Source of the DNA: a virus
Taxonomy: Duplodnaviria; Caudoviricetes
DNA: 64,000 nt
IMG/VR virus record: IMGVR_UViG_3300010167_001484
Span: 1 to 64,000 of that record
Strand: one strand, 5' to 3'
Part shown: piece by piece, positions 573 to 61,794 of the stretch
Position numbering within the stretch: position 1 is the first letter of the stretch
Layout: every line of letters starts with the position of its first letter
The notes under the pieces: generated by a model
Databases searched by the model: none
What the model was told of the DNA's origin: nothing
The model's input: the letters and a program-made list of their open reading frames with translations, nothing else
Translations under genes and position numbers: made by a program

Positions 573-601
573 GTCATACTTAAAAGTATGTGGATTGAAA
601 T
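573..601 (+). repeat. Solitary type I-C CRISPR-repeat-like unit 1
   Basis: GTCATACTTAAAAGTATGTGGATTGAAAT: GTC + hairpin + GTGGATTGAAAT tail as in I-C repeats. Confidence 0.65.
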
Positions 602-611
602 TAGACACCAT

Positions 612-949
612 TGCTGGACTGTAGGATTAAAAGTGTCCATCAGCTAAGGAGTTAATCGCGACAGAGTCATGGGACAAGTGGAGGAAGGCCAGACTGTTAC
701 CATGGCGGGATAGTATAGGATAGCCCTGATATTGGTTAGATATCTTAAACAAGTATCTCTGAAAGTATCCGAAGAACCCTCTAAGCATTGATCTCAGCTA
801 AGTGAGGGAAGACTATCTCGGCAGAGTGAGGAGAGATGACTCACACTTCAAGTAACAAGTATTAGTAGGTGCTGAAACGAATGACCAAAGTTACTTGATT
901 GCCATATGTTAACCTACCGTGGATTATTTAGTGTAATAACACACCAGTA
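612..949 (+). ncRNA. Large structured ncRNA with a 23S rRNA H43/H44 (uL11-binding)-like core
   Basis: Ends TGCTGG/CCAGTA pair; GTAGGATTAAAAGTGTCCATC..CTAAGGAG and GTGTAATAACAC match GAC loops; several internal helices; no ORF. Confidence 0.7.
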
Positions 950-951
950 TT

Positions 952-1120
952 TGTTGACTTGTATAACTCCTTTATATGCCTAAAAGATTCGCAATCTTTG
1001 GGAGGATGTAGAAGTTCCTTCAGACGGTGAAAAGCAATAACACTAAGATAAGAGTCGCAACCTTATAATGAAGTGATTTTTGTAGAATAGCCTAATAAGC
1101 TATATCCATATAAGTCAACA
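952..1120 (+). ncRNA. Candidate ~170-nt structured RNA
   Basis: 13-bp terminal stem TGTTGACTTGTAT/ATATAAGTCAACA enclosing several hairpins; directly before the first tRNA. Confidence 0.55.
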
Positions 1121-1124
1121 TTTT

Positions 1125-1198
1125 GCGTCAGTGGTGTAGTGGTAACATAAAAGATTTCCAATCTTTTGTCGAGGGTTCAATCCCCTCTTGACGCTCCA
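1125..1198 (+). tRNA. tRNA-Gly(TCC)
   Basis: Cloverleaf, AAAGA-TTTCCAA-TCTTT anticodon arm, GGTTCAAT, encoded CCA. Confidence 0.93.
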
Positions 1199-1202
1199 AT
1201 AT

Positions 1203-1276
1203 GCCGGTATGATGCAATGGTAGCATAACACGTTGCCAACGTGTTTGTAGGGATTCAAATTCCCTTACTGGCTCCA
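1203..1276 (+). tRNA. tRNA-Gly(GCC)
   Basis: ACACG-TTGCCAA-CGTGT anticodon arm, encoded CCA. Confidence 0.9.
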
Positions 1277-1283
1277 ATTATAT

Positions 1284-1364
1284 AGGGGGAGTAGCTCAGT
1301 CTGGTTAGAGCACTAGTCTCCAAAACTAGGTGTCGATGGGTTCGAATCCCTCCTGCCCCTGCCA
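1284..1364 (+). tRNA. tRNA-Trp(CCA), slightly atypical acceptor and T stems
   Basis: CTAGT-CTCCAAA-ACTAG, GGTTCGAATCC, encoded CCA. Confidence 0.85.
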
Positions 1365-1367
1365 CAT

Positions 1368-1456
1368 GCTGATATGGTGAAATAGGAAGACACGCCAGCT
1401 TGAGATGCTGGTATCTGTAGAAGGGTGTGTAGGTTCAAATCCTACTATCAGCACCA
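1368..1456 (+). tRNA. tRNA-Leu(GAG)
   Basis: CCAGC-TTGAGAT-GCTGG, long variable arm, encoded CCA. Confidence 0.9.
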
Positions 1457-1587
1457 AGCCGCCGGCGTCAATGGGTAGGTACCGAGCTAAAACGACCCGA
1501 TTAGTTTAACAAGGTTTCGACTTTAGTTATCCTGGACGAGGGAAATGAGTGAGTGGGTGTCTTAAATCGCCTAGCAAGTCGGCGGCT
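1457..1587 (+). ncRNA. Candidate ~130-nt structured RNA inside the tRNA cluster
   Basis: GC-rich terminal stem AGCCGCCGGC/GTCGGCGGCT in an AT-rich genome, between tRNAs; no cloverleaf. Confidence 0.5.
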
Positions 1588-1601
1588 ATAATCTTGAATA
1601 A

Positions 1602-1678
1602 ACCTCATTAGCTCAATTGGATAGAGCATCGCACTTCTACTGCGAGTGTAATAGGTTCGAGTCCTATATGGGGTGCCA
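1602..1678 (+). tRNA. tRNA-Arg(TCT)
   Basis: TCGCA-CTTCTAC-TGCGA, GGTTCGAGTCC, encoded CCA. Confidence 0.92.
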
Positions 1679-1682
1679 GTAA

Positions 1683-1757
1683 ACCTCTATAGTGTAATGA
1701 ATAGCACGCAAGTTTACGGAACTTGTAGTTAAGGTTTGAGTCCTTATAGGGGTACCA
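1683..1757 (+). tRNA. tRNA-Arg(ACG)
   Basis: CAAGT-TTACGGA-ACTTG, T loop TTTGAGT, encoded CCA. Confidence 0.85.
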
Positions 1758-1760
1758 AAT

Positions 1761-1837
1761 GTACTCGTATGTAGTTGGTTTCTACAAGCAAGCTGCAACC
1801 TTGTCTTTCGTCAATTTTATTCTGACAGAGTGCTCCA
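1761..1837 (+). tRNA. tRNA-Cys(GCA), degenerate T loop (possibly pseudo)
   Basis: GCAAG-CTGCAAC-CTTGT arm, acceptor GTACTC/GAGTGC, TCCA end; lacks TTCRA. Confidence 0.65.
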
Positions 1838-1846
1838 AATGAATAA

Positions 1847-1920
1847 TCCTCTGTAGTGTAATGGTAACACCGCAGATTTTGATTCTGCTATTTCTTGTTC
1901 AAGTCAAGACAGAGGTACCA
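1847..1920 (+). tRNA. tRNA-Gln(TTG)
   Basis: GCAGA-TTTTGAT-TCTGC, 1-72 mismatch typical of Gln, encoded CCA. Confidence 0.88.
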
Positions 1921-1928
1921 ATAATTTG

Positions 1929-1960
1929 AAATGACATTCTAATGGATGTCATTTTTTATT
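1929..1960 (+). terminator. Rho-independent terminator closing the RNA operon
   Basis: AATGACATTC-TAAT-GGATGTCATT followed by a T tract. Confidence 0.8.
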
Positions 1961-2011
1961 TAAAAAATTCGTTATAGTAGATATATTGAAATATGAAGGG
2001 AGATAACTATT

Positions 2012-2392
2012 ATGCTTTATTGTGTTGATTCAGGTAAATTTGTAGAAAGGCTGCCGCATAAGAAATCATATGATGCATGGAGAAAGAATATTAGTGATGA
2101 AGATTATGAAGCCGTCTGCGAAGTGCTTGTAAGACGTTTTAAAGGAGATAGAATACATACATCTAGTTGGATTCCAGGTAATGATTGGACAAACACTGTA
2201 TATAATTCTATATATAGGGCATGTAAAAATAATGCTGAATGTGCGGGATTATTCTTTGGACTTATTGTTTTTAAATTATTGATGAAAGATGAACTAGTAT
2301 GGGGATTCGGACGATATGAGAAAAATGGTATCCCTATTAAAGGTATGACTTATTATATATTAGATGGTAGATTTTTAGAAAGGTGCAGTTAA
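2012..2392 (+). CDS. Hypothetical protein
   Basis: ORF with RBS behind the promoter motif at 1967-1978. Confidence 0.75.
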   Translation: MLYCVDSGKFVERLPHKKSYDAWRKNISDEDYEAVCEVLVRRFKGDRIHTSSWIPGNDWTNTVYNSIYRACKNNAECAGLFFGLIVFKLLMKDELVWGFGRYEKNGIPIKGMTYYILDGRFLERCS

Positions 2393-2769
2393 CTATGTCT
2401 ATGATGATTGATAGTGATGGAACAATGCCTTATATTTGTGATGAACCGCATTCATCAGATATATCAAAATTTCATAATCTAGTTGATACTATATGTCAAG
2501 AAGCTGAAATATCTTCTGAAAATACAGGTAGTTTATATTCAGAAGATAGAAAAGAATTTCTTGATGCAGTTAAGTATAGAGCTATTGTAGAAATGAAATA
2601 TAGTGGGAATCCTGCTAATGGATTAGCTAGTTTCATGGGTGATATAGACAAATATAGAGGTGATACACCTTTGTATACATCAAAACAATTATCAATATTG
2701 ATGTCTACAGCTATGGTGCATTCTAGTAATCTATTCGATATGATACGATGGATAAATGGGTGCAATTAA
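2383..2769 (+). CDS. Hypothetical protein
   Basis: ORF overlapping its neighbours in an operon. Confidence 0.65.
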   Translation: MQLTMSMMIDSDGTMPYICDEPHSSDISKFHNLVDTICQEAEISSENTGSLYSEDRKEFLDAVKYRAIVEMKYSGNPANGLASFMGDIDKYRGDTPLYTSKQLSILMSTAMVHSSNLFDMIRWINGCN

Positions 2770-3295
2770 TATGTATGATGTGTACGATATATATTTAGTT
2801 TTTGGTATAAGTGTTTTAGTAGGTATACAGATCGCATATATAATTTCAAAGATATGGGGATTCCTAGTTAAACGACAGAAATTGAAATATAGTAAAACGC
2901 TATATAGATACATAAGAGCTCATTATAATACACTTTCTAAAGATAAATTTGTAATGGGTAAAGGATTATTCAATAATGAGTGTCACTATAACTCAGTACA
3001 AGCTATAGAGGATGGTTTAGCTTCAAAAATAATTTTATGTATGATGGTAACAGATTCTGGTATATTTCCACATTATATAAATGAAACAAAAGAAGGTAAA
3101 TATGTAGATAATACATTTGGTTATCTTTACACTGATGTGAATTTTGATTACTTCTTTATTCGTTATATAGAAGAAGAGGAATTCAGTAAACTTCCATATT
3201 ATATAAATTCTTTGAATGAAAAGGATTTGAGACATCATTGTCCTTGGATATTTAGAAGGGCAGTTAAATCAACTCTACATTCATTTTCTACTTAG
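2756..3295 (+). CDS. Hypothetical protein with N-terminal TM helix
   Basis: Hydrophobic stretch IYLVFGISVLVGIQIAYII. Confidence 0.7.
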   Translation: MGAINMYDVYDIYLVFGISVLVGIQIAYIISKIWGFLVKRQKLKYSKTLYRYIRAHYNTLSKDKFVMGKGLFNNECHYNSVQAIEDGLASKIILCMMVTDSGIFPHYINETKEGKYVDNTFGYLYTDVNFDYFFIRYIEEEEFSKLPYYINSLNEKDLRHHCPWIFRRAVKSTLHSFST

Positions 3296-3312
3296 TAAGG
3301 AGAAAGAAATAG

Positions 3313-3780
3313 ATGAAAGTAATAGTATTTGATATTGATGGAGTATTAGCAGATGCAACTCACAGAGTACATTATGTTACAGGTGAGAAGAAGGATTGGG
3401 ATGCTTTCTATGAAGCTTGTGATAAGGACGAACCTATTATTAAAAATGTAAAACTTCTTGATATATTGTTGTGTGGTCGATATGATGATGACGGTAATAA
3501 GCAATATGAAATTGCATTATTAACAGGTCGTCCAGAAAAACTTCGTGTAAAAACTGTATTGTGGTTCATAAATAAGTGTGATGTAATTATAACTGCTATT
3601 CCTATGTTTATGCGAAAAGATAATGATTATCGTCCTGATTATGTTGTTAAGAAGGAATTAGCAGAACAGTGTATTGGATTAGAGAATATATTATGTGTAT
3701 TTGAAGATCGCGATAGAGTAGTAAAAATGTGGCGTGAAAACGATGTGCAGTGTCATCAAACTTGTGATGGAACTTATTGA
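3313..3780 (+). CDS. HAD-family phosphatase (PNKP 3'-phosphatase-like)
   Basis: FDIDGVLAD, LTGRPE, MR..ND.RPD..VK, FEDR motifs. Confidence 0.85.
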   Translation: MKVIVFDIDGVLADATHRVHYVTGEKKDWDAFYEACDKDEPIIKNVKLLDILLCGRYDDDGNKQYEIALLTGRPEKLRVKTVLWFINKCDVIITAIPMFMRKDNDYRPDYVVKKELAEQCIGLENILCVFEDRDRVVKMWRENDVQCHQTCDGTY

Positions 3781-4610
3781 TATATTTCGTTAAGATATTT
3801 GAGGGAGAAATTATGCCAACATCTGATATAAGAATACTGGAATATGTATCTTTCTTTACGAAGGAAGATATTTCTATACTGTATAGAAATAAAGAGTATA
3901 GATTTGATGCAATTAAAAAATTCATAATTAGTCCTACATTTTGGCAGTCTGATGATTGTAATGTGTGTGGTAAATGTTGTAGTAATTTTGGTATTGCATT
4001 TTTTGAATCTGAATTATCTAAGCTTCAATTGAGTAAGAGCAAGATTGTTCAAGAAGAGTTGATACCCAATCTAAAAAAGATTGACATACTATATAATGGT
4101 AAACCTAAAAATCTATATTATATGTATCCTGTAGCTGATAAACATGTTGAAATGTTTGATGCAGGTGATAGAACTGTGAGATCTTGTCCGTTTTCTAGAA
4201 CAATTGAAGGTACATTAGAATTTCAAACAGCTGCAGGAATTAAACGTATTGAAGGGGCTAGAGGTTGTTGTATACATTTAGATAGAAGTCATACATGCAA
4301 ATTTCCACATATTAGATTCTATCACAATACTAGGCAACCAGGTATAATGAGAATGGGAGTTCATCAATATGGTAGAAATTGGGCTATGAAATGTCCAATA
4401 AGTTTCTTACCATTCAATATAGATGAAATAAGGGGCAAGATACAAACATTGAAAGATTTTTATCGAGATATACAATATCTTGGAACAGAAACATGGCTTC
4501 CTGAAATTATAAATTATTTAGAAACTAATTTAGATTTGTTTGTTAATGATATTCCTTGTACAGAGATAGTATTCACTAATGAAGTTAAAAATCTGGGATT
4601 AGGTTTCTAA
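3777..4610 (+). CDS. YkgJ-like cysteine-cluster protein
   Basis: CNVCGKCC...CPF...CCIH..R..TC.FP. Confidence 0.6.
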   Translation: MIYFVKIFEGEIMPTSDIRILEYVSFFTKEDISILYRNKEYRFDAIKKFIISPTFWQSDDCNVCGKCCSNFGIAFFESELSKLQLSKSKIVQEELIPNLKKIDILYNGKPKNLYYMYPVADKHVEMFDAGDRTVRSCPFSRTIEGTLEFQTAAGIKRIEGARGCCIHLDRSHTCKFPHIRFYHNTRQPGIMRMGVHQYGRNWAMKCPISFLPFNIDEIRGKIQTLKDFYRDIQYLGTETWLPEIINYLETNLDLFVNDIPCTEIVFTNEVKNLGLGF

Positions 4611-4645
4611 TTTAAAAAATTATATTGGAGAAGTGGGGTAGTATT

Positions 4646-4882
4646 ATGAGCAGAAACAAAGAGGGATTAGAGGGTATAACATTATTAGGGAATCATAACA
4701 CCGAGTATGTGTCTGAATATAGTCCAGATATACTAGAAAGGTTTCCTAATAGAAATCCGACAAATACACAGGTGGTAAATCTAGACTGTAAAGAGTTCGC
4801 TAGTAGATGTGAAATAACGAATCAACCTGATTATGGTACAATATATATCTCGTATATACCAGATCAATGGATGGTAGCTTAA
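4646..4882 (+). pseudogene. queF: Truncated N-terminal queF paralogue
   Basis: Aligns to the first half of the next ORF (TLLGN.NTEY, EF.S.C..T.QPD..TIYISY.P); stops just before the ESKSLKLY motif. Confidence 0.75.
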
Positions 4883-4910
4883 TTTTTAATTATATAAAGG
4901 AGTATTTAAC

Positions 4911-5405
4911 ATGAGTAGAAGTAATGATGAACTTAAAGGTGTGACATTGTTAGGAAATCAAAATACAGAATATGAATATGGATATAATCCTAATATTCTT
5001 GAGACATTTCAAAATAAACACCCTGACAACGACTATTTTGTCAAATTCAATTGTCCGGAATTCACTTCACTCTGTCCGATGACAGGGCAACCAGATAATG
5101 CGACAATCTACATCTCTTATGTTCCTAATATGGATATGGTAGAGAGTAAATCTCTTAAACTTTATCTATTCAGTTTCCGTAATCATGGAGATTTCCATGA
5201 GGATGTAATCAATATCATCAAGAAAGATCTTATCAAACTTATGGATCCGAAGTATATTGAAATATGGGGTAAGTTTCTACCTCGTGGTGGTATTTCTATT
5301 GATCCGTATTCAAATTATGGTAAATCTGGAACAGCGTGGAAAGAAATCGCAGAACAGAGACTATATCAACATGATATGTATCCTGAAATAGTTAATAATA
5401 GATAG
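4911..5405 (+). CDS. queF: NADPH-dependent preQ0 reductase QueF (type I)
   Basis: [42 protein letters not shown]. Confidence 0.95.
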
Positions 5406-5406
5406 T

Positions 5407-5973
5407 ATGGAAATTTGGAAAGATATAGAAGGTTATGAAGGTTACTATCAAGTTAGTAATCAGGGCAATGTTAGAAGCTTAGATAAAATCATAACAAACA
5501 ATAAGGGTGTAACTTATGAACGATTAGGTAAAATTCTATCATTCAATTTGAATGCAGGGTATCCTCAGATTTATTTGAGTAAGAATGGAGTCGTTAGAAC
5601 ATATAGAATTCATAGACTTGTAGCACAAGCATTTATACCTAATCCTGAAAATAAACCTACAGTCAATCATAAGGATGAAACTCGAACAAACAATAATGAT
5701 TGGAATTTAGAGTGGGCAACTTATAAAGAAAATTCTAATTATGGCACATTACCTGATAGATTTAGTATAGTACATAGTGGTAGACAAGTATCTATAGAAA
5801 CTCGTAATAAACTAAGTGAAGCTCGTAGAGGTTATAAACATTCAGAAGAAACATGTAAGAAAATATCTGAGGGTAATAAGGGTAAAATAGTATCCGCTGC
5901 TACAGGTAGAAAAATATCAGAATCCAAACGAAAACATAAATATACTGATGAGAAATCCAAGAAATTATTTTAA
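5407..5973 (+). CDS. NUMOD4-HNH-NUMOD3 homing endonuclease
   Basis: EIWKDIEGYEGYYQVSNQGNVRS, HRLVAQAFIPNP, VNHKDE..TNN...NLEW, HSEET.KKISE. Confidence 0.9.
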   Translation: MEIWKDIEGYEGYYQVSNQGNVRSLDKIITNNKGVTYERLGKILSFNLNAGYPQIYLSKNGVVRTYRIHRLVAQAFIPNPENKPTVNHKDETRTNNNDWNLEWATYKENSNYGTLPDRFSIVHSGRQVSIETRNKLSEARRGYKHSEETCKKISEGNKGKIVSAATGRKISESKRKHKYTDEKSKKLF

Positions 5974-6002
5974 ATTGATTTAATAAGAAAGGTATAGCAG
6001 AT

Positions 6003-6647
6003 ATGAAGAAAGCTCTAGTAATTTTTAGTGGGGGGCAGGACAGTTCGACTTGTCTTATAAATGCATTACAACAATACGATGAAGTACAAGTTATAACATT
6101 TAAATACGGGCAAAAACATGTGATAGAAATAGATAAAGCTATTGAAATTGCAAAACATTTTGATGTGAAGCAAACTATAATAGACTTAGAATTGATGAAA
6201 GACATCACATCTAATGCTCTCATGAATGCAGATATGCAAATAAACTATGAAGAGGGAGAATATATTCCTAATACGTTTGTAGATGGTAGGAATGCAATAT
6301 TCATATTATTAGCTGCAATCTATGCAAAATCGCAAGATATTAAAGATATCATCGTAGGTGTTTGTGAAACAGATTTTAGTGGTTATCCAGATTGTCGCCA
6401 CGTTTTTGTAAAATCTATGAATGTAACAATTAATCTAGCTATGGATTATAACTTTAATGTTATAGCGCCTCTGATGTATCTAACTAAGAAAGAAACATGG
6501 GCACTTGCAGATGAATTGGGATATTTAGAATATGTGCGAGATAATACTCATACTTGTTATGAAGGAATAATAGGCGGTTGCGGTGTATGTCCTAGTTGTA
6601 TTCTTAGAAATAAAGGATATGACGAATACATGCAAGAATGTACATAA
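6003..6647 (+). CDS. queC: 7-cyano-7-deazaguanine synthase QueC
   Basis: [12 protein letters not shown]-loop, YGQKH, GRN, GYPDCR, CY.G...[10 protein letters not shown]. Confidence 0.95.
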
Positions 6648-6676
6648 ATTTGGAATAATGTGTTGGTGAATACAGG

Positions 6677-6916: not shown

Positions 6917-7224
6917 GCATTTTCATTAAAAGTGCCGAGGGTAGACCTACTTACGCCTTACAGGTATTGTAAGGGTATAGCGTAACTAAGACGAAAGGGG
7001 TGGTTCATCTCATGTCTAAAGACACGAGTATTCCCACAAATTTGATAAAACTTCATATCATAGTAAACTTACACCTTGGGATGATAGTTTATTAACAGAT
7101 TATTTATTATCACTTGTATTGAATACATTAGGTTCTGGTGAATATGAAGTATGGAATGGAGAATTGGGTAAAGGATGGCCTGCAGATGAAATTGTTAAAA
7201 TAATTTCGTTATAGTATATATGAA

Positions 7225-7256
7225 GTCATGCTTTAATTAAGTGTGTGGATTGAAAA
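7225..7256 (+). repeat. Solitary type I-C CRISPR-repeat-like unit 2
   Basis: GTCATGCTTTAATTAAGTGTGTGGATTGAAAA (32 nt), hairpin with G-U pairs, behind the promoter motif at 7204-7215. Confidence 0.65.
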
Positions 7257-7294
7257 GTAGATATAATCAAATAATCCAGAAGGAGTATACTACA

Positions 7295-7603
7295 ATGCAA
7301 ATAATGTTAAGTTCAAATTATTCAGTAAATCCTGGTACTACAATTACAAAAGAAGATGTATGGGGCAAATATGATGATGTGAATCATAAGATAATTGATG
7401 AGGGCATGGTAGTTGCTCGTCAAGGTAAATGTCCTATCTTCGGTGATGAACTTCCTTACAAGTCAGTTACACTTGTTTGTACAGACGATCAATTATATGA
7501 TGTACTCTATTGGATAGATTATGTTCACGGTGCTAATAGTGTTAGTAAGATACTTACAATGGATGATGGTATAGCAATTCGGTCAGATTATATGGCATGG
7601 TAG
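7295..7603 (+). CDS. Hypothetical protein
   Basis: ATG 7295 preceded by AAGGAG RBS. Confidence 0.7.
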   Translation: MQIMLSSNYSVNPGTTITKEDVWGKYDDVNHKIIDEGMVVARQGKCPIFGDELPYKSVTLVCTDDQLYDVLYWIDYVHGANSVSKILTMDDGIAIRSDYMAW

Positions 7604-8058
7604 AGGTAGTTGAAATGAATTCATTAAGATTTCAATTTAAAGCTCAATTATATAATAGAGATGATTGGGTGCAAGGTTATTATATTGGACCAGAATTAGT
7701 TAGCCCCACTAGTGATCTTAATCAAAGATATATTAGAAATAACAATCATCGAATACAGGTTCCAAATGGTAATATCTATAGAATTGATTTGGATACTCTT
7801 CAATTAGTTCCGGTGCCTATAAAATTTGAGTTTGTAGATGATAACTATACTTGTTATTGTCCAGATTGTCAAATTTTACTTGATTTACATGATGAGCATT
7901 ATTCTTATTGTAAAGAATGCGGTTGTAGATTAGATTATACAGAGGTGTATAAACATTCAATAGAAATTGAAGATGAATCTATTACTGTTACAGATATGTC
8001 CGGAACATATGCATATGAAGGTAGAATTCCATTAGCTCATCGAGAGGAGTATGATTAA
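7597..8058 (+). CDS. YopX-like N-terminus plus zinc-ribbon protein
   Basis: FKA....DWVQGYY; CPDC...CKECG.RLD. Confidence 0.55.
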   Translation: MVEVVEMNSLRFQFKAQLYNRDDWVQGYYIGPELVSPTSDLNQRYIRNNNHRIQVPNGNIYRIDLDTLQLVPVPIKFEFVDDNYTCYCPDCQILLDLHDEHYSYCKECGCRLDYTEVYKHSIEIEDESITVTDMSGTYAYEGRIPLAHREEYD

Positions 8059-8426
8059 TGAAAAAATTGATTAGAAATACATCTATATTGGGGATGGCTA
8101 ATATTGATTCTAAAGGTACAGGTTTACCTGTAGATATCTGGTCAGATCATTCAGGTATAAAGAGAAGTGTATCACATAGAAATACACCTCGTATGAAGGT
8201 AGGTAAACCTGAAGGACCTTCTGTTAGTATTACAATAACTGAAAATCCCGAAATACTTACAACTATTGCTAGAATTAAAAAATCAGATATGCGAGATATT
8301 GAAGAAGGTATCAAGTATGTTGCTAGAAATCATGATATATTTCTTAAACATTACATGGATATAGATAACTCTTTTAGAGATGTTGATATGTTTGATGCAT
8401 TAATCCAGAGAGGTGAATATAGATGA
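8058..8426 (+). CDS. Hypothetical protein, tandem paralogue A (MKKLIRN leader)
   Basis: Strong similarity to 8423-8791 (GMAN...TGLPV.IW..H, ENPEILTT.ARIKKSDMRDIEEGIKY). Confidence 0.8.
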   Translation: MKKLIRNTSILGMANIDSKGTGLPVDIWSDHSGIKRSVSHRNTPRMKVGKPEGPSVSITITENPEILTTIARIKKSDMRDIEEGIKYVARNHDIFLKHYMDIDNSFRDVDMFDALIQRGEYR

Positions 8427-8791
8427 AAAAGCTAATTAGAAATACCTATATATTTGGAATGGCTAATCTTGTACCTCCTAAGACAGGATTACCTGTGAGT
8501 ATATGGATAGAACATGCGGGTATAACTAGAAATGTATCGCATAGTAATATACCTAGAGTTAAGATTGGGTTTCAAGGAGGTGCTTCTGTATCTGTATTGA
8601 TATCTGAAAATCCTGAAATTTTAACTACAACTGCTAGAATAAAGAAATCTGATATGCGAGATATTGAAGAAGGAATCAAATATATTGCAAGAAATCATGA
8701 TTTATTCTTGAAATGTTATATGAATACTGATTATTCTTTTGGTGATGATGAGTTGAAAGATGCACTTCGTGAACGAGGAGAATATAAGTGA
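8423..8791 (+). CDS. Hypothetical protein, tandem paralogue B (MKKLIRN leader)
   Basis: Duplicate of the preceding ORF. Confidence 0.8.
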   Translation: MKKLIRNTYIFGMANLVPPKTGLPVSIWIEHAGITRNVSHSNIPRVKIGFQGGASVSVLISENPEILTTTARIKKSDMRDIEEGIKYIARNHDLFLKCYMNTDYSFGDDELKDALRERGEYK

Positions 8792-11461: not shown

Positions 11462-11463
11462 TT

Positions 11464-14115: not shown

Positions 14116-14516
14116 ATAATACACAGATGAGAAAATTACAGAATTTCTTAGATGCTGAAAAAGCGGGATTATTGATTAAATTACCTTGTCCTATAGGTAC
14201 AAGAGTATATCGAATAGTAAGTATGGATGAATATCTCAAAGTGATGGGATGTTGTGTTTGTATACCTATAAGTGATAATGATACAGTTTGTACATATTTT
14301 GATAAAGATGAACCTGATGGAGAAATTTGTGCAATTAGTGGTCAGAATGTTATTGTTAGAGATATTGAATATCGATTGATTTCTTGCAGATTCACATATG
14401 AGATGATTCCTGAAGTAGATAAATATGTATTCATTAATTCTAGTGATGCATGGGAAGTATTTATAACAAAAAGATTCGCAAAGGAGGTATTGAATTGGAA
14501 CGACCCTCGAAAGTAG
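14112..14516 (+). CDS. Hypothetical phage protein
   Basis: GLLIKLPC.IG..VY motif common in Firmicutes phages. Confidence 0.7.
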   Translation: MNNTQMRKLQNFLDAEKAGLLIKLPCPIGTRVYRIVSMDEYLKVMGCCVCIPISDNDTVCTYFDKDEPDGEICAISGQNVIVRDIEYRLISCRFTYEMIPEVDKYVFINSSDAWEVFITKRFAKEVLNWNDPRK

Positions 14517-16114
14517 AATATTATTTAGATATTGCACACAGTGTTGCAATGAGGGGTACATGTCTTCGTAGAAAATTTGGTTCAGTTATAGTTAATGCTG
14601 ATGAGATTATATCTACAGGTTATGTAGGTGCACCTAGAGGTCGAAAGAATTGTATTGATATAGGTAATTGTAAGAGGCAACGATTACAAATACCTGCCGG
14701 TGAACGATATGAACAGTGTTTATCTGGAGATACTTTAATATATATGTTATCTGGTGAGCATAGAACTATTAAAGAACTTTCTGAAGGTGAAGATGAAGAA
14801 ATTCATATTATATCTATAGAAGATGGTAATATTGTGCCCGCTGTAGCTCAAAAACCATTCTGTTCAGGTAGAAAGAGTATTATTCGTATTGTATTTGATG
14901 ATAATACTTATCTTGATTGTACATCAAATCATCGCATAATGCAACGAGATGGATCTTATATTGAAGCAATTAATCTTAAAGAAGGTAATAGTATAATGCC
15001 TTATTATTCTGGTGATGGGGTTATTTGTAATACTTGGAGTGAGCGATATTCTAAACCGAATAAACAAGAACGATTAAATTGGAAACAATGGTGTAAAACT
15101 ACATCTACCGATATTGCGTGGTTAGTATATCAATATTATAATGGACAAATAATATCAAATCTACCTCATAATCATCCGGATGAACTCTGTATTCATCATG
15201 AAGATGAGAATCATAATAATAATCAACCAAATAATCTAGAATTAACTACAAGGAGTATGCACAGTAGTAAACATGGTGATTTAGGTGAATATGTTAAAAA
15301 TAATCCAGAACAACATAGATTGAATTGTATCAAAGGTAGTGAAGCTTATAAGTTAAGACGAGAAACTGATGAGAAGTTTCGGGCAGAGGATTCTGCTAGA
15401 CGAGCCGCAAATACTCGTAAGCAATGGGAAAATCCACAACATAGATTAAATATGTTACCTCATCAAAAAGCCGCATGTAAGAAGTTAGCAGATATGTATA
15501 ATAGTTGTCCTAAATCTATAAATAGTAGAATGAAAGGTAAAATACTTAAAGGCATATCTCAATTATACTATATTCTAGGTACAACTGATATAGATATATC
15601 TGAATATGATTCTTTAGCAAGACAATATACAACAAAGAAATGTATAATATATAAAACAGCTACGGTACTTAAAAGATTCAATTCTTTATATGAAGCATTT
15701 GATTTGGCGAAAACATATAATCATAAGGTTAGAAATGTTGTATTTCTTAAAGATGAAGTAGATGTGTATGATATGACTGTGCCGGGATTAGAAAATTTTG
15801 CTGTGAATCTTGGCAATAATTCTGGGATATTTGTACATAATTGTAGGTCCTGCCACTCCGAGTGCAATGCTATCATATCAGCATCTAGACATGAAATGAT
15901 TGATAGTACTTTATATCTTGTAGGTATAGATGCTGAAACAAATGTAACTATATTAGGAGCTATGCCTTGTGCAATGTGTAAAAGAATGATAATAAATGCA
16001 GGAATCAAGAAAGTTATTATCAGAGATGCTACATATGATGATGGATATATAGAAATTGATGTGAGAGATTGGATATACAATGATGAGTCTTTAGAATCAC
16101 ACGAAGGTTATTGA
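14495..16114 (+). CDS. dCMP deaminase containing an intein
   Basis: RP...YYLDIA..VA.R.TCLRR.FG, TGY.GAPRG; HSE.NAII and PCAMCKR zinc motifs; TTG start after GGAGG. Confidence 0.92.
   Translation: MERPSKVEYYLDIAHSVAMRGTCLRRKFGSVIVNADEIISTGYVGAPRGRKNCIDIGNCKRQRLQIPAGERYEQCLSGDTLIYMLSGEHRTIKELSEGEDEEIHIISIEDGNIVPAVAQKPFCSGRKSIIRIVFDDNTYLDCTSNHRIMQRDGSYIEAINLKEGNSIMPYYSGDGVICNTWSERYSKPNKQERLNWKQWCKTTSTDIAWLVYQYYNGQIISNLPHNHPDELCIHHEDENHNNNQPNNLELTTRSMHSSKHGDLGEYVKNNPEQHRLNCIKGSEAYKLRRETDEKFRAEDSARRAANTRKQWENPQHRLNMLPHQKAACKKLADMYNSCPKSINSRMKGKILKGISQLYYILGTTDIDISEYDSLARQYTTKKCIIYKTATVLKRFNSLYEAFDLAKTYNHKVRNVVFLKDEVDVYDMTVPGLENFAVNLGNNSGIFVHNCRSCHSECNAIISASRHEMIDSTLYLVGIDAETNVTILGAMPCAMCKRMIINAGIKKVIIRDATYDDGYIEIDVRDWIYNDESLESHEGY
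14717..15841 (+). mobile_element. Intein (375 aa) with HNH-type endonuclease
   Basis: Starts CLSGDT, block B CTSNHRI, ends VYDMTV...NF......FVHN followed by Cys; internal IHHEDENHNNNQPNNLEL. Confidence 0.9.
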
Positions 16115-39297: not shown

Positions 39298-39330
39298 AAG
39301 TCAACCTCAATTATGGGGTTGACTTTTTTA
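39298..39330 (+). terminator. Rho-independent terminator ending the structural block
   Basis: AAGTCAACCTCA-ATTA-TGGGGTTGACTT plus T tract. Confidence 0.88.
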
Positions 39331-39388
39331 TGTAAAAATTTCGTTATAGATGTTATAAATCAAATAATCCATAAAGGAGAATAAGAAG

Positions 39389-39601
39389 ATGTGTATCACA
39401 ACACCGCTTACAGATCTAATGAAGAAGGGGTATGATGTAAAGCTTACAAATATCGGTGAAGATGTATTCAATGTTGAAATTCTACATTCAGGAGAAGTGG
39501 TTCATGTATTTCGAGGTCCAGTTTCACCAAGTGATAATTTAGCACATGCTTTGATGTCATTTGCAGATATTACCAAAAGAAGGTTTAATTGGGATGACTA
39601 A
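39389..39601 (+). CDS. Hypothetical protein
   Basis: Follows promoter motif 39339-39350 and the conserved leader. Confidence 0.7.
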   Translation: MCITTPLTDLMKKGYDVKLTNIGEDVFNVEILHSGEVVHVFRGPVSPSDNLAHALMSFADITKRRFNWDD

Positions 39602-46103: not shown

Positions 46104-46128
46104 TAGAGGTATTTTTTACAACATTTTT

Positions 46129-46158
46129 GTCATACTAATATAATATGCGGATTGAAAT
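46129..46158 (+). repeat. Solitary type I-C CRISPR-repeat-like unit 3
   Basis: GTCATACTAATATAATATGCGGATTGAAAT, intergenic. Confidence 0.55.
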
Positions 46159-46193
46159 AGCTATAGATGGTGGGAAGAGGTGTTAGCTGTATT

Positions 46194-46886
46194 ATGAATA
46201 GATTCATATTGTGTTGGAAACATTTTAAAACTATATGTAAACATAAATGGTATGTATTTTTAGAATGTAGAAAAATGGGAATCACTTGGCAAGGTATTAC
46301 ACATGATTTGAGTAAATTCTTACCTTCTGAATTTTGGTCTTCTGCTAAATATTGGACAGGTGTAGGATCACCTGTTGAGGCTGAACGCAATGCTATAGGA
46401 TACTCTTTAGCCTGGCGGTTTCATAAGGGTAGACCTCAAAATCGACATCATTGGCAGTGGTTCATAGATCCTGATGGTTGGGATGACGAAGGTAGAGTAA
46501 TATTAAATCCAGCTCCTATGCCTGAGAAATATATAAAAGAGATGGTCTGTGATATGCGAGGTGCAGCTAGAGCTTATGGTAGTGATACTGTGAAGTATTA
46601 TTTAGCTAAGCAGAAGGAGTGGGTTCTTCATCCTGATACAAAGAAACAGTTTGAATTTTTATTAGGAGTTACAGGGAGTAAATATTATATAAGTGCGTAC
46701 ACTGCAAAGGAAGCTACAGATATAGCAAAAGAACGAAATATATCTAGAGGTGGATGGGCATATATACCCTCTAATCCTTTAGAAGAATATACAAGAGAAA
46801 AGTTACTTAAAGGTTTAAAGGTTACACATCCTGATTATCTAATAGGTTATTTTACACAGGCAGAGCGAAGATATTTGTTTAAATAA
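46194..46886 (+). CDS. DUF5662 (HD-like) protein with C-terminal extension
   Basis: KHKW.V, HDLSKF.P.EF, GYS.AW..HKGR...HHWQ, MP.KY..EM.CD. Confidence 0.75.
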   Translation: MNRFILCWKHFKTICKHKWYVFLECRKMGITWQGITHDLSKFLPSEFWSSAKYWTGVGSPVEAERNAIGYSLAWRFHKGRPQNRHHWQWFIDPDGWDDEGRVILNPAPMPEKYIKEMVCDMRGAARAYGSDTVKYYLAKQKEWVLHPDTKKQFEFLLGVTGSKYYISAYTAKEATDIAKERNISRGGWAYIPSNPLEEYTREKLLKGLKVTHPDYLIGYFTQAERRYLFK

Positions 46887-46914
46887 TTTCGTTATAGTAT
46901 ATTGTCATAAGGAG

Positions 46915-47364
46915 TTGAATATGATGAAAATAACTAAAAGAAGATATCCTATATTAGGAATGGCTAATGAACTGAAAGAAATAAGGCGTCAATTAGATGG
47001 AAAATCACAAGCTGTAATTGGACATCTTGTTAAATTATGTTTATATCCAAATAATGGACTTAAGAATCATTGGCGTACAGAAGTTTGGGCAATATTACAT
47101 AGGGTTCCTAAATATACAAAAACAAATAAACCACCTAAAGCTCAATTCATATTCAATAGTACTTGGGGAATAAATCATGATACTATTGACGGAGATATAG
47201 AATTAACAATCGATGAATATGGTGAGCCTGAAATTAGTGTTGAATTTGATGCCATATATAGTAGATTGTCTGATTATTTCAGCTGGATTGCTAATGAATT
47301 ATCTGATAGAATGATAATCTTAAAGAAAGATGTTTATGCTAAATTAGATGAATTAGGTATGTGA
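46915..47364 (+). CDS. DUF29-like hypothetical protein
   Basis: HLVKL...P.....HWR.EV. Confidence 0.5.
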   Translation: MNMMKITKRRYPILGMANELKEIRRQLDGKSQAVIGHLVKLCLYPNNGLKNHWRTEVWAILHRVPKYTKTNKPPKAQFIFNSTWGINHDTIDGDIELTIDEYGEPEISVEFDAIYSRLSDYFSWIANELSDRMIILKKDVYAKLDELGM

Positions 47365-55567: not shown

Positions 55568-55583
55568 TAAGGAGAGATTTAAA

Positions 55584-56048: not shown

Positions 56049-56065
56049 TTTTTCACAATAATTGT

Positions 56066-56103
56066 AAAATAGTGTATCTATTTTTCTAGATGCACTATTT
56101 TTA
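56066..56103 (+). terminator. Rho-independent terminator
   Basis: AAAATAGTGTATCTA/TAGATGCACTATTTT plus T tract. Confidence 0.75.
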
Positions 56104-56161
56104 TGTAAACATTTCGTTATTGTATGTAATAAATCAAATAATCCATAAAGGAGTGATTACA

Positions 56162-56833: not shown

Positions 56834-58414
56834 CATAGAGTCGTTGAGATCAAAGGTCGTCACATATAAAGATATAGAATCTGCCGCAGATAACAGATTT
56901 GGTGGATTTGTATACGAAGATGCTGCTTGGTTAGCTAGTGTAAATACTACTGAAGGATTTAAATCTTATATTGAAAGCATACTGCCTAGTTATCTGAAAG
57001 TTGTTGAATATGGTTCTACTAAGATTGTTGATGCATATGTTAAACTAAACAATGGAATTCGTATTAATGGTAATGATTCTTGTTACAGAATTTGATTTCG
57101 TTATATGGAATATAAATTAAAATTGGAGGTAAATATCAATGAATACAGAAGTAGAAGTAGCCTACACAATCATAGGTGAGAAGAAAAGGTTCACATTCGA
57201 AGATGTGAGAACCAATGTAAGAAACGGTGTATTCGAAGGGAAGGTAGAATATCCTGAAGATGGAATACTCAAGTATGATCATGTCTTTGATGAAGATCAA
57301 AGTGTTCGCTGGAATCGTGAACAAGTTTCGCAACATAATTCGATAGTTAGATCAGCAAAAGATTCTTGGACTGCAGAGCAGAATTTGATGTACAATAGAT
57401 TTCGTACTCAACTTATATCTGCAATCATGGATGATATAAGATGTATCAGTGAAGAAACTGCATCTAAGATATTCGATGAAGCATGGAGCGACGGTCATTC
57501 TTCAGGTTATGAATCTGTTATAGATGCAGCTGATAGGTTAGTAGATTTTTTTAGCATTATCATCAAGATGGAAGGATGGGATGAAAAATGACATTACTTG
57601 AAGCAATGGTTCAACTTTACAATCATGATGACAAGAAGAAGTATGTTTCATTCACCATTTCTTTTCCAGATGTAACACGTACTGCAATAATTAAAAAACA
57701 CTGGAGTAAAGTTTTGAAGCAGTGGAATTATTTTATCAAAGAAACGTATTTACCTAATTTTGCGTATGATGAAGAAAAAATCATACCTGCAATTGCTGGG
57801 ATATCTGGTGTATCTTTATTTCTCAATATGATTACATGTAAGGTATCTGATGTAGAATATGGGGATGCAAAATGAGTACAATAAAGCAGAAAGTTGAGGC
57901 TATTCTTCAACTTAGTGAAAAAGCTAGAAATGACGATAAGTATTTGATATTATTGTATTGGAGTAGGGTTGATCTTATTAGGTTAAAAAATAATCCTAAC
58001 ATAGTAGACGATATCATTCAGAATGCAACTTCGCCTAGTTCTATAATACGGGCAAGAACATTAGTACAATCTAATGGTTTATATCCTCCAACAGAAGAAA
58101 TGGTATTGAAGAGACGTAGTAGAGAAGAAAGTATGCGAGATAGTATCGCTAGATTAGGAGAGGTGTACGAAGGTGAATAAGATATGATGACAGTAAAAGA
58201 AGTATTAGATGATATTCAAACACTGGATGGGGGAGATACATTACTTTGCCAGCTTATGGCTCTGCATAAGCACAGTTCAGGTAATGAAGATAAGGTGAAT
58301 ATGTTGAATGATCTAGGACTGAGTCTAAGTAATTTACAAGAATTGAGATCTGCAATGGCACGTATTAAGAAATCAATAGCTGTTAAATTGTATAATACTG
58401 AGGTTAATATATAA
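56817..58414 (+). CDS. Five small hypothetical proteins (56817-57095, 57139-57591, 57588-57875, 57872-58180, 58184-58414)
   Basis: Packed ORFs with RBS. Confidence 0.65.
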
Positions 58415-58426
58415 AGGAGAATAAAT

Positions 58427-59095
58427 ATGCATGTTGTTAGAAACAGAGATTATATGTTTGCTGGTTGTGTATATTGTGGTTGTGATTATTGTTTCAATGC
58501 TATAGGTGTTCGCGGTGGTGGAGTAAGTGTTCTAGAATGTGGAGAATGTAACGAATCATTTATTGTACTTGCTGATGGACGTACACAATCTACAATGGGT
58601 TTTGGTGTTAAAGAAGGACACGTTACAACTAGATTCAACTTTATTGAAGAAGGTATTCCGGAGCTTGTAAAGCAAACATGTTATGATGACGATGGATATT
58701 GGTATCCAACGGTTGGCGAGCATCCAAGACGAGATATCGCTAAGCATGAATATGTAAAACCTGACATAAGGCCGGATGACGGTATTGGGGAGTTCTGGAC
58801 ACCTCGTGGTGTAGGGCATGATGGACATAGTCCAAACATATCCGGATTTGTAAAAAGTAAACAAGCTGGAGAACGTATTCTAGAGATGTTCCAGAATGCT
58901 AGAAACAAGAATAATCAATTCAAAGATGAATCAACTGAATTGACTGAAAATACATGGTTAGATTATCGCAAACGAGAGCCTGATTGGATTCAGTTCAAAG
59001 TAAGCTCAGATGATGCTGATGTTAATAGATTATATGAACTTACAAAAGATACAAGCATCATAACACAAGATATCATTGACGAAGTGTGTAAATAA
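58427..59095 (+). CDS. Hypothetical protein with N-terminal zinc ribbon
   Basis: GCVYCG...CGEC; SGFVKSK.AGERI. Confidence 0.7.
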   Translation: MHVVRNRDYMFAGCVYCGCDYCFNAIGVRGGGVSVLECGECNESFIVLADGRTQSTMGFGVKEGHVTTRFNFIEEGIPELVKQTCYDDDGYWYPTVGEHPRRDIAKHEYVKPDIRPDDGIGEFWTPRGVGHDGHSPNISGFVKSKQAGERILEMFQNARNKNNQFKDESTELTENTWLDYRKREPDWIQFKVSSDDADVNRLYELTKDTSIITQDIIDEVCK

Positions 59096-59154
59096 TTTTT
59101 CAAATAATTTCGTTATAGTATACATAATAATCAAATAATCCAAAAGGAGAGTGT

Positions 59155-59442
59155 ATGATGATATTAGATCTTAGAGGAGATAATCGTAAGCAGTTTATCA
59201 CAGCTATTGCATTGCATGGTGTACGTAATACTGAACTTGAGAATATACATGCAGGTGAATATGAGGGAAATATTATTGATGATTCAACAATGCGAATTTT
59301 GATGCTTGATATTGAAAAGCAAATTGATATGGTTTTAACAATGATTGAAAATAATGCACCATTTCCTTATATGCGTCGTTCTTGGGATGTTCCACAGGAA
59401 GAATATGATAGATTTGTTGCTTTATGTGAATCGTCTAAATAA
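59155..59442 (+). CDS. Hypothetical protein
   Basis: VRNTELE.IHAG; own promoter motif and leader. Confidence 0.7.
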   Translation: MMILDLRGDNRKQFITAIALHGVRNTELENIHAGEYEGNIIDDSTMRILMLDIEKQIDMVLTMIENNAPFPYMRRSWDVPQEEYDRFVALCESSK

Positions 59443-59492
59443 TTTCGTTATAGTGTATATAATAATCAAATAATCCAAAAGGAGAATATATA

Positions 59493-60437
59493 ATGGAACT
59501 CACACCAAAAATCATATATGATAAACTTTCAGAAGATGTGATAGGGCAAGAAAATGCTAAAAAACTTCTAAGTGTTGCAGGATATAATCATTTCATAAGA
59601 TGTATGAATCTCGATAAGGGTATAGAGAAGTCAAATCTTATTCTCATTGGACCAACGGGATGTGGTAAAACTTTATTAATGAAATCTTTAGCTAAGATTT
59701 TGAAAATACCTTATGCTATATCAGATGCAACAACTTTAACTCAAGCAGGATATGTCGGAGAAGACGTTCAAAATTGTCTATTACGATTAATTCAAAATGC
59801 TAATATGAATGTAGAATTAGCAGAACGTGGAATCTGTTATATAGATGAAATTGATAAATTAGGAAGAAAATCTGAATCACCTTCTATAACACGTGACGTT
59901 AGTGGAGAAGGTGTTCAACAATCATTATTGAAGTTAATTGAGGGCGATATTGTAAATGTACCGGCTACTGGAGGTCGTAAACGTCCTACTGCAGAGTTAG
60001 ATAATTATATCACAATAGATACTTCAAATATATTATTTATCTGCAGTGGTTCTTTTGAAGATTTAGGATATAAAGATAAAGTAACAACAGACGATTTGAA
60101 GAAATTCGGTATGATGCCTGAGCTTCTCGGTCGTCTTCCTGTTGTAGCTAAACTTGATGATCTTTCAGTAGAAGATATTATTAGAATTCTTACAGAACCT
60201 AAGAATTCTATTGTTACTCAATATAAGAAATTATTTGAGTTGAATGGAAGCAAATTGTATATTCAAAAAACAGCTCTTGTGAGTATTGCAGAATATGCAA
60301 TAGAAAAAAGGATAGGAGCAAGAGGACTTCGTAGTATTCTTGAAACTATTCTACTTGATTTCATGTTTGAATTTCCTGAAGACGGTGATACAATTATTGG
60401 TCCTGAATATGTATATGATATATTGGTAGGTATTTGA
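59493..60437 (+). CDS. clpX: ClpX-like AAA+ ATPase lacking the N-terminal zinc domain
   Basis: [53 protein letters not shown]. Confidence 0.9.
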
Positions 60438-60619
60438 TGATGAAAGATATATTTGAAATGACTCCGAAAGAGTTAGAGGATGCACTTAGAGATCCGAATT
60501 TGTTAGCATATCTTGCAAGTGAAGGGATAATGGTACATATAGATGAGGATACAGTAGATGAAGATGGGTTGCATCTTATTCACATCTGGGGTACTGATCC
60601 TGATTCTACGAGACATTAG
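60434..60619 (+). CDS. Hypothetical protein
   Basis: Short overlapping ORF. Confidence 0.55.
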
Positions 60620-60706
60620 TTGATTGAAATGGATTTAGAAATCTTAAAATAATTTCGTTATAGTAGATGTAGTTCAAATTGAAATCAATTAAGGAGGAAA
60701 TTTACA

Positions 60707-61660
60707 ATGTCAATGGTATACGTAAAAGATCTACCCTGGTCAGGTGTCGGAGCAAAATTCGATAAAACACCTACTACATCAAAAGAAATCATAGATGGTG
60801 GTAAGATAGGGTTCAGATCTGCATCTACCCCAATGTACACTCAGCATCATACTCATGAAGATATCGGGAATTATCACGTGATGTATCGCGAGGATACAAA
60901 CGAACCCATCGGAGTAATCAATCAACAGAAGATTAAGATTACTCAAAACGAAAACATGTTCAGAGCTGTCGAATCGCTCATAGGTATAGATTTAGTACCT
61001 ACATCGGCAGCTATGGTAGGTAGAGGTAGTAAGGTTTTTGGATTCTTCAAGACGAACGAAGGATACAAAGTTGAAGGTGATGATATTGATCATTATGTCG
61101 TCATAATGAACGATCATCTCAAACCTGACGGTAAGATAACAGTTCTTAATTATCCCGTTCGGCTTGTATGTACAAACGGCTTGACAGAAATCGTTGGAAG
61201 GATAAGTAAATATCGTGTATCGTGTTCAGATAATATGGTAGAAAATCAGTCGATTGCTGCTTTCATTCGAGATCGAGTATTGAATACTCAAATAGTTCTT
61301 GAAAGGAATGCTGAGAATAAACTCAAACAGAAGCTTACAAAAGAACATGTTGAAAAGATTCTCGATGATTTGTTCCCTTATCTAAAAGCTGATGTCGGTT
61401 CATCTCATGACAGAGCAAATGAAACAACGTCAATGATTAGAGAAACATTCCTTACAAAGTGTATGAATGCCGATGATCTTCAGAACTTCAAAGGAACATT
61501 CTATCAGCTTGAAAATGCGCTCTTGGATTTTTCACAACATTATTTCATGTCCAACGAAAAAGGTATTGATCTCGAAAGACGTCTTGCAGAAATGCCTGGA
61601 TTAGTATCCAATTATCAGATGAGTAAATATTTCAAATTACAACGGCAATTAGTTGCATAG
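60707..61660 (+). CDS. DUF932 family protein
   Basis: PW.G.G, R.DT...IG, QN..F, G.KVF, PVRLVC.N, GT.Y...NA..D...H. Confidence 0.8.
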   Translation: MSMVYVKDLPWSGVGAKFDKTPTTSKEIIDGGKIGFRSASTPMYTQHHTHEDIGNYHVMYREDTNEPIGVINQQKIKITQNENMFRAVESLIGIDLVPTSAAMVGRGSKVFGFFKTNEGYKVEGDDIDHYVVIMNDHLKPDGKITVLNYPVRLVCTNGLTEIVGRISKYRVSCSDNMVENQSIAAFIRDRVLNTQIVLERNAENKLKQKLTKEHVEKILDDLFPYLKADVGSSHDRANETTSMIRETFLTKCMNADDLQNFKGTFYQLENALLDFSQHYFMSNEKGIDLERRLAEMPGLVSNYQMSKYFKLQRQLVA

Positions 61661-61678
61661 TATATGATGAATTATCAG

Positions 61679-61712
61679 TAAGACCGAGTTTGTAATGAAT
61701 TCGGTCTTATAG
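61679..61712 (+). terminator. Probable terminator hairpin
   Basis: TAAGACCGAGTT/AATTCGGTCTTA inverted repeat. Confidence 0.6.
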
Positions 61713-61764
61713 TGTATCTTGATTTTTAATTATAAATTTCGTTATAATGAATGTAGGTAATTTT

Positions 61765-61794
61765 GTCATATTAACAAAGTATGTGGATTTAAAT
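61765..61794 (+). repeat. Solitary type I-C CRISPR-repeat-like unit 4
   Basis: GTCATATTAACAAAGTATGTGGATTTAAAT behind the promoter motif at 61737-61748. Confidence 0.55.

Follow-up and report, generated by a model that had tools for sequence, protein, structure and literature searches.

Why should a bacteriophage with no CRISPR system of its own carry the same CRISPR-repeat-like element ahead of transcription units scattered along its genome? This question is raised by the IMG/VR virus record IMGVR_UViG_3300010167_001484 (Duplodnaviria; Caudoviricetes), a sequence of 214,046 bp and 33% G+C in which 211 of the open reading frames (ORFs) of at least 100 aa lie on the plus strand and 11 on the minus strand. 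Its first 64 kb (64,000 nt), referred to here as the window, had been the subject of a preliminary description, which noted four dispersed intergenic hairpin elements, interpreted them as solitary mimics of type I-C CRISPR repeats and saw in them either RNA anti-CRISPRs (Racrs) or a switch that depends on the Cas5c/Cas5d protein of the host. All four elements are present at the positions given in that description, and the complete record holds two more (Table 1). Their identification as type I-C repeat mimics is well supported by comparison with genuine repeat sequences. The explanation favoured here, which is drawn by analogy with known systems and to which we give about an even chance, is that these solitary, shortened I-C repeats at the 5' ends of phage RNAs act as RNA anti-CRISPRs of the Racr type.

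Copy number, anatomy and identity of the element

The pattern GTCAT-N10-22-GGATTKAAA has four matches in the window, all on the plus strand, against 0.04 expected from 100 shuffles, and five forward matches in the complete record, with none in reverse and none to the backwards control. Including one degenerate copy, the record contains six copies, all of which are intergenic, on the coding strand and in the same orientation, at distances of 1.8 to 119 kb from each other (1.8 kb for the closest pair). A CRISPR array was rejected as an interpretation because of these distances, and the 78-nt periodic repeats of the phage are coding repeats. The absence of cas genes and arrays from the window, noted in the preliminary description, extends to the whole record: no array-like repeat was found in it, and a six-frame search gave no match at E≤1 to Cas5d (two models), generic Cas5, Cas6 or Cas7c. 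Any Cas partner of the element must therefore be encoded by the host.

The copies share a layout in which a 5' GU is followed by a hairpin, with 4-7 pairs in the stem and 3-9 nt in the loop, and by a single-stranded tail of 11 nt. The outer three stem pairs are standard in all six copies, the C-G and A-U pairs being invariant and the third pair being U-A in five copies and U-G in copy 2, and the GU followed by a C-G closing pair is found in 6/6 phage copies and in 39/39 of the array repeats described below. Copies 1 and 5 have the tail UGGAUUGAAAU unaltered, copies 2, 3 and 4 deviate from it at a single position (the last base in copy 2, the first base in copy 3 and a G replaced by U in copy 4) and copy 6 deviates at three, while the UGG that follows the predicted cut site is intact in the four promoter-linked copies (1, 2, 4 and 5). 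Upon folding, the stems prove weak, at -2.0 to -4.6 kcal/mol, and copy 3 taken alone forms no fold. Copies 2, 4 and 6, in which G-U pairs occur, fold as the sense strand only (antisense folding free energy, dG, 0.0), and the hairpin is therefore a property of RNA and not of duplex DNA. This strand specificity, together with the G-U pairs and the range of loop lengths, bears out the earlier preference for an RNA hairpin over a DNA operator.

Arrays of repeats of the form GTCAT...ATG-UGGAUUGAAAU are present in 42 stretches of bacterial or archaeal genome DNA (GTDB), mostly from Clostridia and with Oscillospiraceae, Lachnospiraceae, Hungatella hathewayi, Holdemania and Ruminococcus among their holders, and the same GTCAT-type arrays occur in 80 metagenome stretches. 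These stretches yield 39 distinct repeats of 31-35 nt. Hungatella hathewayi DSM 13479 (L167) and Holdemania filiformis DSM 12042 (L181) are examples of cultured strains that possess a GTCAT-type array. In two loci that were examined (L278 and L279), I-C cas operons are directly followed, in the same orientation, by GTCAT-type arrays with 58 and 53 repeats, respectively; in these operons Cas3, Cas5c, Cas8c and Cas7c score above the NCBIfam cut-offs in both loci and Cas4 and Cas1c also do so in L278. A covariance-model scan of the whole genome had been proposed in the preliminary description as a check, and a model built from the array repeats only (R1), searched on both strands, indeed ranks five phage copies on top, in the order 1, 5, 3, 4 and 2, all as full-length matches with E from 2e-6 to 0.07 (copy 1, 37 bits, E 2.2e-6; copy 3, 20.7 bits, E 0.03; copy 4, 20.5 bits, E 0.034; copy 2, 19.3 bits, E 0.067). 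Copy 6 was not recovered by this genome-wide search. The closest array repeat to copy 1, the L141-type repeat, is identical to it over the first 7 nt and the last 16 nt, and the four extra positions of the array repeat are the inner, G-C-rich part of its stem. Rfam is uninformative in this respect, as it returned no family at E≤1 for copy 1 and none for a genuine I-C array either. The arrays beside I-C cas operons, the R1 ranking and the strand-specific hairpin thus support the earlier identification of these elements as solitary type I-C repeat mimics.

What the phage copies share with array repeats, and what they have lost, can be compared with the reported requirements of the processing enzyme. 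The substrate of Cas5c is described as a 7-pair stem with a pentaloop, flanked by overhangs of 2 nt on the 5' side and 11 nt on the 3' side, and as being cut after the stem; recognition is reported to centre on the stem base, on U22-G23-G24 after the cut and on the 3' overhang, and the loop and the 5' overhang to matter little (PMC8524198). Like the I-C repeats processed by Cas5c/Cas5d, the phage copies have the GU overhang, a C-G-closed stem, the UGGAUUGAAAU tail and the UGG. They differ from these repeats in being 29-32 nt long with loops of 3-9 nt and 4-7 mostly A-U or G-U pairs, as opposed to 31-35 nt with 7-8 G-C-rich pairs, and in being non-tandem, without spacers or adjoining cas genes. 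Stem base, UGG and 11-nt tail are kept and inner stem and loop are shortened or varied, that is, the features that Cas5c is reported to read are conserved and those it is reported to tolerate are not, as expected if the selected partner is Cas5c or Cascade.

Table 1. Coordinates and properties of the repeat units, their promoters, the units behind them and comparable viral loci (positions refer to the window unless prefixed by G000)
Feature	Position or locus	Strand	Description
Copy 1	573..601	+	29 nt: GU, 6-pair stem, 4-nt loop, tail UGGAUUGAAAU; dG -4.1
Copy 2	7225..7256	+	32 nt: 7-pair stem including two G-U, 5-nt loop, tail UGGAUUGAAAA
Copy 3	46129..46158	+	30 nt, weakest: 4 pairs, 9-nt loop, tail CGGAUUGAAAU; dG 0.0
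Copy 4	61765..61794	+	30 nt: 6-pair stem with one G-U, 5-nt loop, tail UGGAUUUAAAU
Copy 5	G000:180575-180603	+	Fifth perfect copy, outside the window
Copy 6	G000:182387-182416	+	Degenerate; tail runs into ribosome-binding site
Promoter motif of copy 1	556..567	+	TTTCGTTATA; -10-like TATAGT; copy 1 begins 5 nt past hexamer
Promoter motif of copy 2	7204..7215	+	Mimic begins 9 nt past TATAGT
Promoter motif of copy 4	61737..61748	+	Mimic begins 16 nt past TATAAT
Unit led by copy 1	602..1955	+	Unassigned RNA of ~520 nt (602-1124), seven tRNA genes, terminator 1928-1955
Genes after copy 2	7295..8791	+	102 aa, 153 aa, two 122-aa paralogues beginning MKKLIRN
Gene after copy 3	46194..46886	+	DUF5662 protein, PF18907, E 6e-30
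ORF after copy 4	61821..61928	+	35 aa, begins MKKLIRN
Short viral solitary I-C units after TATAAT	L137, L133, L131, L126/L135, L129/L134, L121/L122, L097/L128, L047		
Arrays of G007	~23.3, 33.2-34.0 and 83.9-84.2 kb		5, 13 and 4 repeats; solitary unit at 89934-89968, on the other strand

Promoters, leaders and the units behind them

The promoter-like motif of this phage consists of TTCGTTATA followed by a -10-like TATAGT or TATAAT. Exact TTCGTTATA sites number 27 in the record, all on the plus strand, and most of them are without the element. In four of the six copies a match to the promoter consensus ends 7-18 nt upstream, within the 250 bp that is used as a criterion for Racrs. The distances of 5, 9 and 16 nt originally reported for copies 1, 2 and 4 hold when measured from the end of the TATAGT/TATAAT hexamer and become 7, 11 and 18 nt when measured from the end of the 10-mer TTTCGTTATA; copy 5 begins 5 nt past its hexamer, and promoter and unit of copies 1 and 5 are near-identical base for base. 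Because these four copies lie 5-16 nt after the hexamer, transcription is predicted to start with the first base of the mimic or immediately ahead of it. Copy 2 sits in an insertion of ~40 nt into a standard promoter-leader cassette (alignment A2), which is found without the unit at five other sites (window 39330-39392, 59099-59155 and 59434-59495; G000:176485-176540 and 195830-195890).

In this cassette, which precedes unrelated genes, the TTTCGTTATA motif is followed after ~10 nt by a conserved AAUCAAAUAAUCCA leader and then by AAAGGAG, and over 6-7 pairs part of the leader is the complement of the UGGAUU found in the tail of the mimic. The promoter at 46888 (window 46887-46925) has 21 nt in common with the promoters of copies 1 and 5, including GTCAT, and then runs straight into the ribosome-binding site (RBS); either a former unit has shed its hairpin and tail here, or this promoter natively begins its leader with GTCAT. 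The phage promoter motif is absent ahead of copy 3. At 46115-46144 lies a sigma-70-like site (11/12; TTTACA, 18 nt, TATAAT), the -10 box of which falls within the loop of this copy, and a transcript from this site would start within the copy 3 tail.

Start codons lie 38, 35 and 26 nt after copies 2, 3 and 4, in agreement with the preliminary description, and all copies other than copy 1 are 12-41 nt ahead of genes; copy 3 has in addition an alternative ATG at 46167, 8 nt downstream of the unit. Copy 1 does head a non-coding RNA and tRNA operon, as had been proposed, since the unit behind it lacks a convincing ORF (only short ones of 25-34 aa occur) and consists of the RNA, tRNA genes and terminator listed in Table 1. 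Positions 540-1130 gave no Rfam match at E≤1. The first three proteins encoded after copy 2 have no Pfam family, and the only PHROG match among them is a weak one of the 153-aa protein to a family of unknown function; among all downstream proteins, a Pfam or PHROG function is assigned to the DUF5662 protein and to an HNH/NUMOD4 endonuclease only. Small paralogues of the form MKKLIRN...GMAN are encoded at 8058-8426, 8423-8791 and 61821-61928 of the window. The last of these, the ORF behind copy 4, ends at 35 aa and may be truncated or frameshifted.

A proposed RNA decoy and its alternatives

Racrs provide the nearest precedent for such elements. RacrIC1 inhibits I-C interference, and in an I-F system a non-targeting CRISPR RNA (crRNA) lowered interference (PMC10651486). 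Like the Racrs and solitary repeat units described in that work, the element is a single intergenic repeat mimic carried by a phage, has a promoter a short distance upstream and belongs to the subtype class of RacrIC1, which is co-transcribed with a protein gene. The features by which Racr candidates are chosen are found here as well: the copies are repeat-like (judged by the R1 match and not by the SRUFinder BLAST score, for which the cut-off for solitary repeat units is 41.1 bits; PMC10651486), they are on a virus, they are intergenic and no repeat is present in their flanks. There are, however, differences. Racrs are found once, in a small RNA or downstream of an anti-CRISPR (acr) gene, whereas here six dispersed copies occupy the 5' ends of mRNAs and of a tRNA operon; moreover, the stems are shortened and AT-rich, there is no recognised acr neighbour and the activity is presumed by analogy. 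Virus-borne mini-CRISPR arrays directed against rival viruses resemble the element in being repeats on a cas-less virus that relies on host Cas proteins, but they contain at least two repeats around a spacer that matches the rival virus, whereas the phage units are single repeats with no known target.

From these likenesses we infer a transcription start at the unit, binding or cleavage by Cas5c and inhibition of interference, and an anti-CRISPR function is, by analogy, plausible. In the proposed mechanism, Cas5c of the host would read the stem base and the UGG plus tail of the leader RNA and would either stay bound or, probably, cut after the stem, which would leave a phage RNA with an 11-nt crRNA 5' handle. 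Cas5c, Cas7c and Cas8c would then load on phage RNAs that guide nowhere, because the DNA from which such an RNA is copied has the repeat tail at its flank, instead of the protospacer-adjacent motif (PAM) of type I-C, which is TTC (PMC8406640). As a result, fewer complexes would be armed with host spacers. Placing the unit behind a strong, often-used promoter and repeating it on four to six transcripts, among them that of the tRNA operon, could provide the high dosage that inhibition by Racrs needs, and would do so without dedicated small-RNA genes. In line with this scheme, the DNA copy of each pseudo-spacer (the sequence following the unit) is preceded by the repeat tail and not by TTC, and no TTC-flanked in-register match to the pseudo-spacers is present in the phage genome, paralogous leaders included, so that no self-targeting is predicted. 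A further point counted in favour of a decoy is the nature of copy 2 as an addition to a cassette that elsewhere functions without the unit.

Comparable units are found in other viruses. A first pattern used on IMG/VR was too loose, most of its 110 matches being chance occurrences without a hairpin. When IMG/VR was scanned for solitary units that share the ends of the phage element, 19 distinct sequences were obtained, of which ~14 have stems of at least 5 pairs. Many of these viral units are shortened (27-31 nt, 5-6 pairs, a tetraloop), and shortening may be a general trait of viral mimics; many also have a perfect TATAAT that ends 6 nt before the G of GTCAT (range 6-9 nt), and several precede a terminator and some an ORF. 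This layout of a TATAAT box followed by a short unit recurs in unrelated IMG/VR contigs and corresponds to the published class of Racr candidates. When ten other viral records were searched as a whole with the model, most had one unit, one had a one-spacer mini-array and another, the 92.8-kb IMG/VR record behind L138 (G007), combined a lone unit with three I-C-type arrays. With its six dispersed units, the phage genome is thus at the high end of this small sample.

Several observations weigh against the decoy explanation. The 1,302 unique spacers from the 122 stretches with GTCAT-type arrays gave no match to the phage; the best alignment, 24 nt with 2 mismatches, involves 22/35 spacer bases and is therefore not a credible protospacer. 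Since the stems are weak, efficient recognition of the phage units by Cas5c is not assured, and no array repeat in the scanned collections is as short and AT-rich as the phage copies. The UGG is altered in copies 3 and 6, which are also those without the phage promoter motif, and these two copies may be decaying. The R1 scores partly restate the search pattern, because the arrays were collected with the pattern of the phage element; independently of this circularity, the sequence class is a genuine I-C repeat. Pfam and PHROG searches of the downstream proteins identified no known Acr gene next to the copies. Relatives that could show conservation of the layout are likewise missing from the collections searched: in a megablast search of 50,697 phage records with 20 kb as the query, all matches were of 51-58 nt and at chance level, the ligase protein led to one 33%-identical IMG/VR locus whose record is without the unit, and a promoter-plus-unit pattern had zero matches over IMG/VR. 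Finally, the frequency of Shine-Dalgarno motifs (105/211 starts as opposed to 15/211 control sites) fits a Firmicute-like host only loosely.

Among the alternatives, a 5' leader element that belongs to the phage itself and is apart from host CRISPR, its likeness to repeats being ancestral or coincidental, has a small but appreciable chance of being correct. Such a hairpin could shield the RNA from decay that depends on its 5' end or could be the site of an unrecognised phage RNA-binding protein, and a 214-kb phage has many proteins of unknown function. The position of the element within a few nt of the predicted transcript start, the weak stems, AT-rich like the rest of the genome, and the GTCAT that follows the promoter at 46888 without a hairpin are all in keeping with it. 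However, the agreement of copies 1 and 5 with genuine I-C repeats, over the final 16 and initial 7 nt, goes far beyond what a generic stabiliser needs, and the best-conserved part is the single-stranded tail, whose exact I-C sequence is left unexplained; besides, the phage has no Cas5 or Cas6 homologue and most of its promoters do without the element.

A second group of ideas keeps the host Cas proteins as partners and gives the leaders a more active role. It is unlikely, if worth keeping in mind, that the mimics couple phage expression to host immunity, as a CRISPR-sensing regulon, or that the leaders guide against siblings lacking the insert; under the coupling idea, Cas5c cleavage and Cas7 loading on the leaders, in cells expressing type I-C, would convert a selected set of phage transcripts into Cascade-bound RNAs, which would titrate the effector and simultaneously alter the translation or stability of the genes behind the leaders. 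A guide or regulatory crRNA-like RNA as such, in which the handle plus the next ~34 nt form a one-spacer guide for the I-C Cascade of the host, has a slim chance. Its targets would be sibling phages with an insert-less leader or a host cas or toxin promoter, the latter amounting to Cracr-type silencing. A unit at the 5' end would indeed yield a 5' handle and a leader of spacer length, with start codons 26-38 nt downstream; viral Cracr RNAs aimed at I-C loci have been reported (bioRxiv 10.1101/2024.10.29.618823), and the mini-array and the full arrays with a lone unit in the two viral records mentioned above point in the same direction. Cracrs and the phage leaders are alike in joining a repeat-like unit to spacer-length sequence. 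The Cracr pseudo-spacer, however, matches a host cas or toxin promoter, the criterion being at least 9 PAM-proximal matches (bioRxiv 10.1101/2024.10.29.618823), whereas those of the phage are its own leaders, namely RBS regions that differ among copies. In addition, the phage genome offers them no in-register TTC-flanked match, and copy 1 is followed by structured RNA and tRNAs.

The immunity-sensing switch that the preliminary description had preferred to a simple decoy, in which Cas5c cleavage and Cas7 loading alter the stability or translation of the downstream RNA in cis and the phage thereby senses immunity, is improbable. Five of the six copies are in 5' untranslated regions, with RBS and AUG inside the stretch of ~40 nt over which a Cas7 filament would extend, but this arrangement received no specific support as a switch: copy 1 leads an RNA-only operon, where a translational switch would have no object, no function or family unites the downstream genes save for some MKKLIR-type N-termini, and the cassette into which copy 2 is inserted as an add-on runs at five other sites without the unit. 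To our knowledge, a cis-acting switch dependent on Cas5c has no precedent. Least probable of all is a double-stranded DNA operator or a set of non-functional relics of recombination with a host array, which the imperfect palindrome near promoters and the degraded look of copies 3 and 6 might suggest, but with which the G-U pairs (C-A mismatches on the other strand), the variable loops, the conserved tail outside the palindrome and the presence of six intergenic, same-strand leader copies, four at a fixed place after a promoter, are hard to reconcile.

Source, host and significance

The sequencing-run listing gives termite gut metagenomes, one of them perhaps the source, as the DNA holders of the phage sequence, and lists no RNA run that holds it. 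An ENA contig of 219,527 bp extends ~5.5 kb beyond the virus record, 250 nt on the left and the remainder on the right. When the host was sought via protein neighbours, the ThyX matches in the atlas were viral clusters alone. Other features of the window include a QueF-family gene (4911-5405) and a QueC-family gene (6003-6647), both identified by Pfam matches, which suggest a 7-deazaguanine pathway and possibly DNA modification against restriction, and a gene for dCMP deaminase (14450-16114) that is split by an intein splicing domain.

The RNA anti-CRISPRs described in 2023 are single small RNAs or partners of acr genes, whereas in this cas-less jumbo phage a mimic of the I-C repeat is distributed over six transcription units. 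The trick itself is thus already known, and what is unusual is the layout, in which the mimic is multi-copy, coupled to the promoter and embedded in leaders, including that of a tRNA unit. Because the copies are shortened and AT-rich, BLAST-based catalogues may score them poorly and could under-count such units. The copies also constitute a natural series of minimal substrates with which the needs of Cas5c can be approached, as they combine 4-7 weak pairs with point changes in the UGG and the tail. For an orphan termite-gut phage, moreover, they point to a type I-C-bearing, probably Firmicute, host. If the units are active, embedding them in leaders would be a cheap route for phages to the RNA dosage that decoys need.

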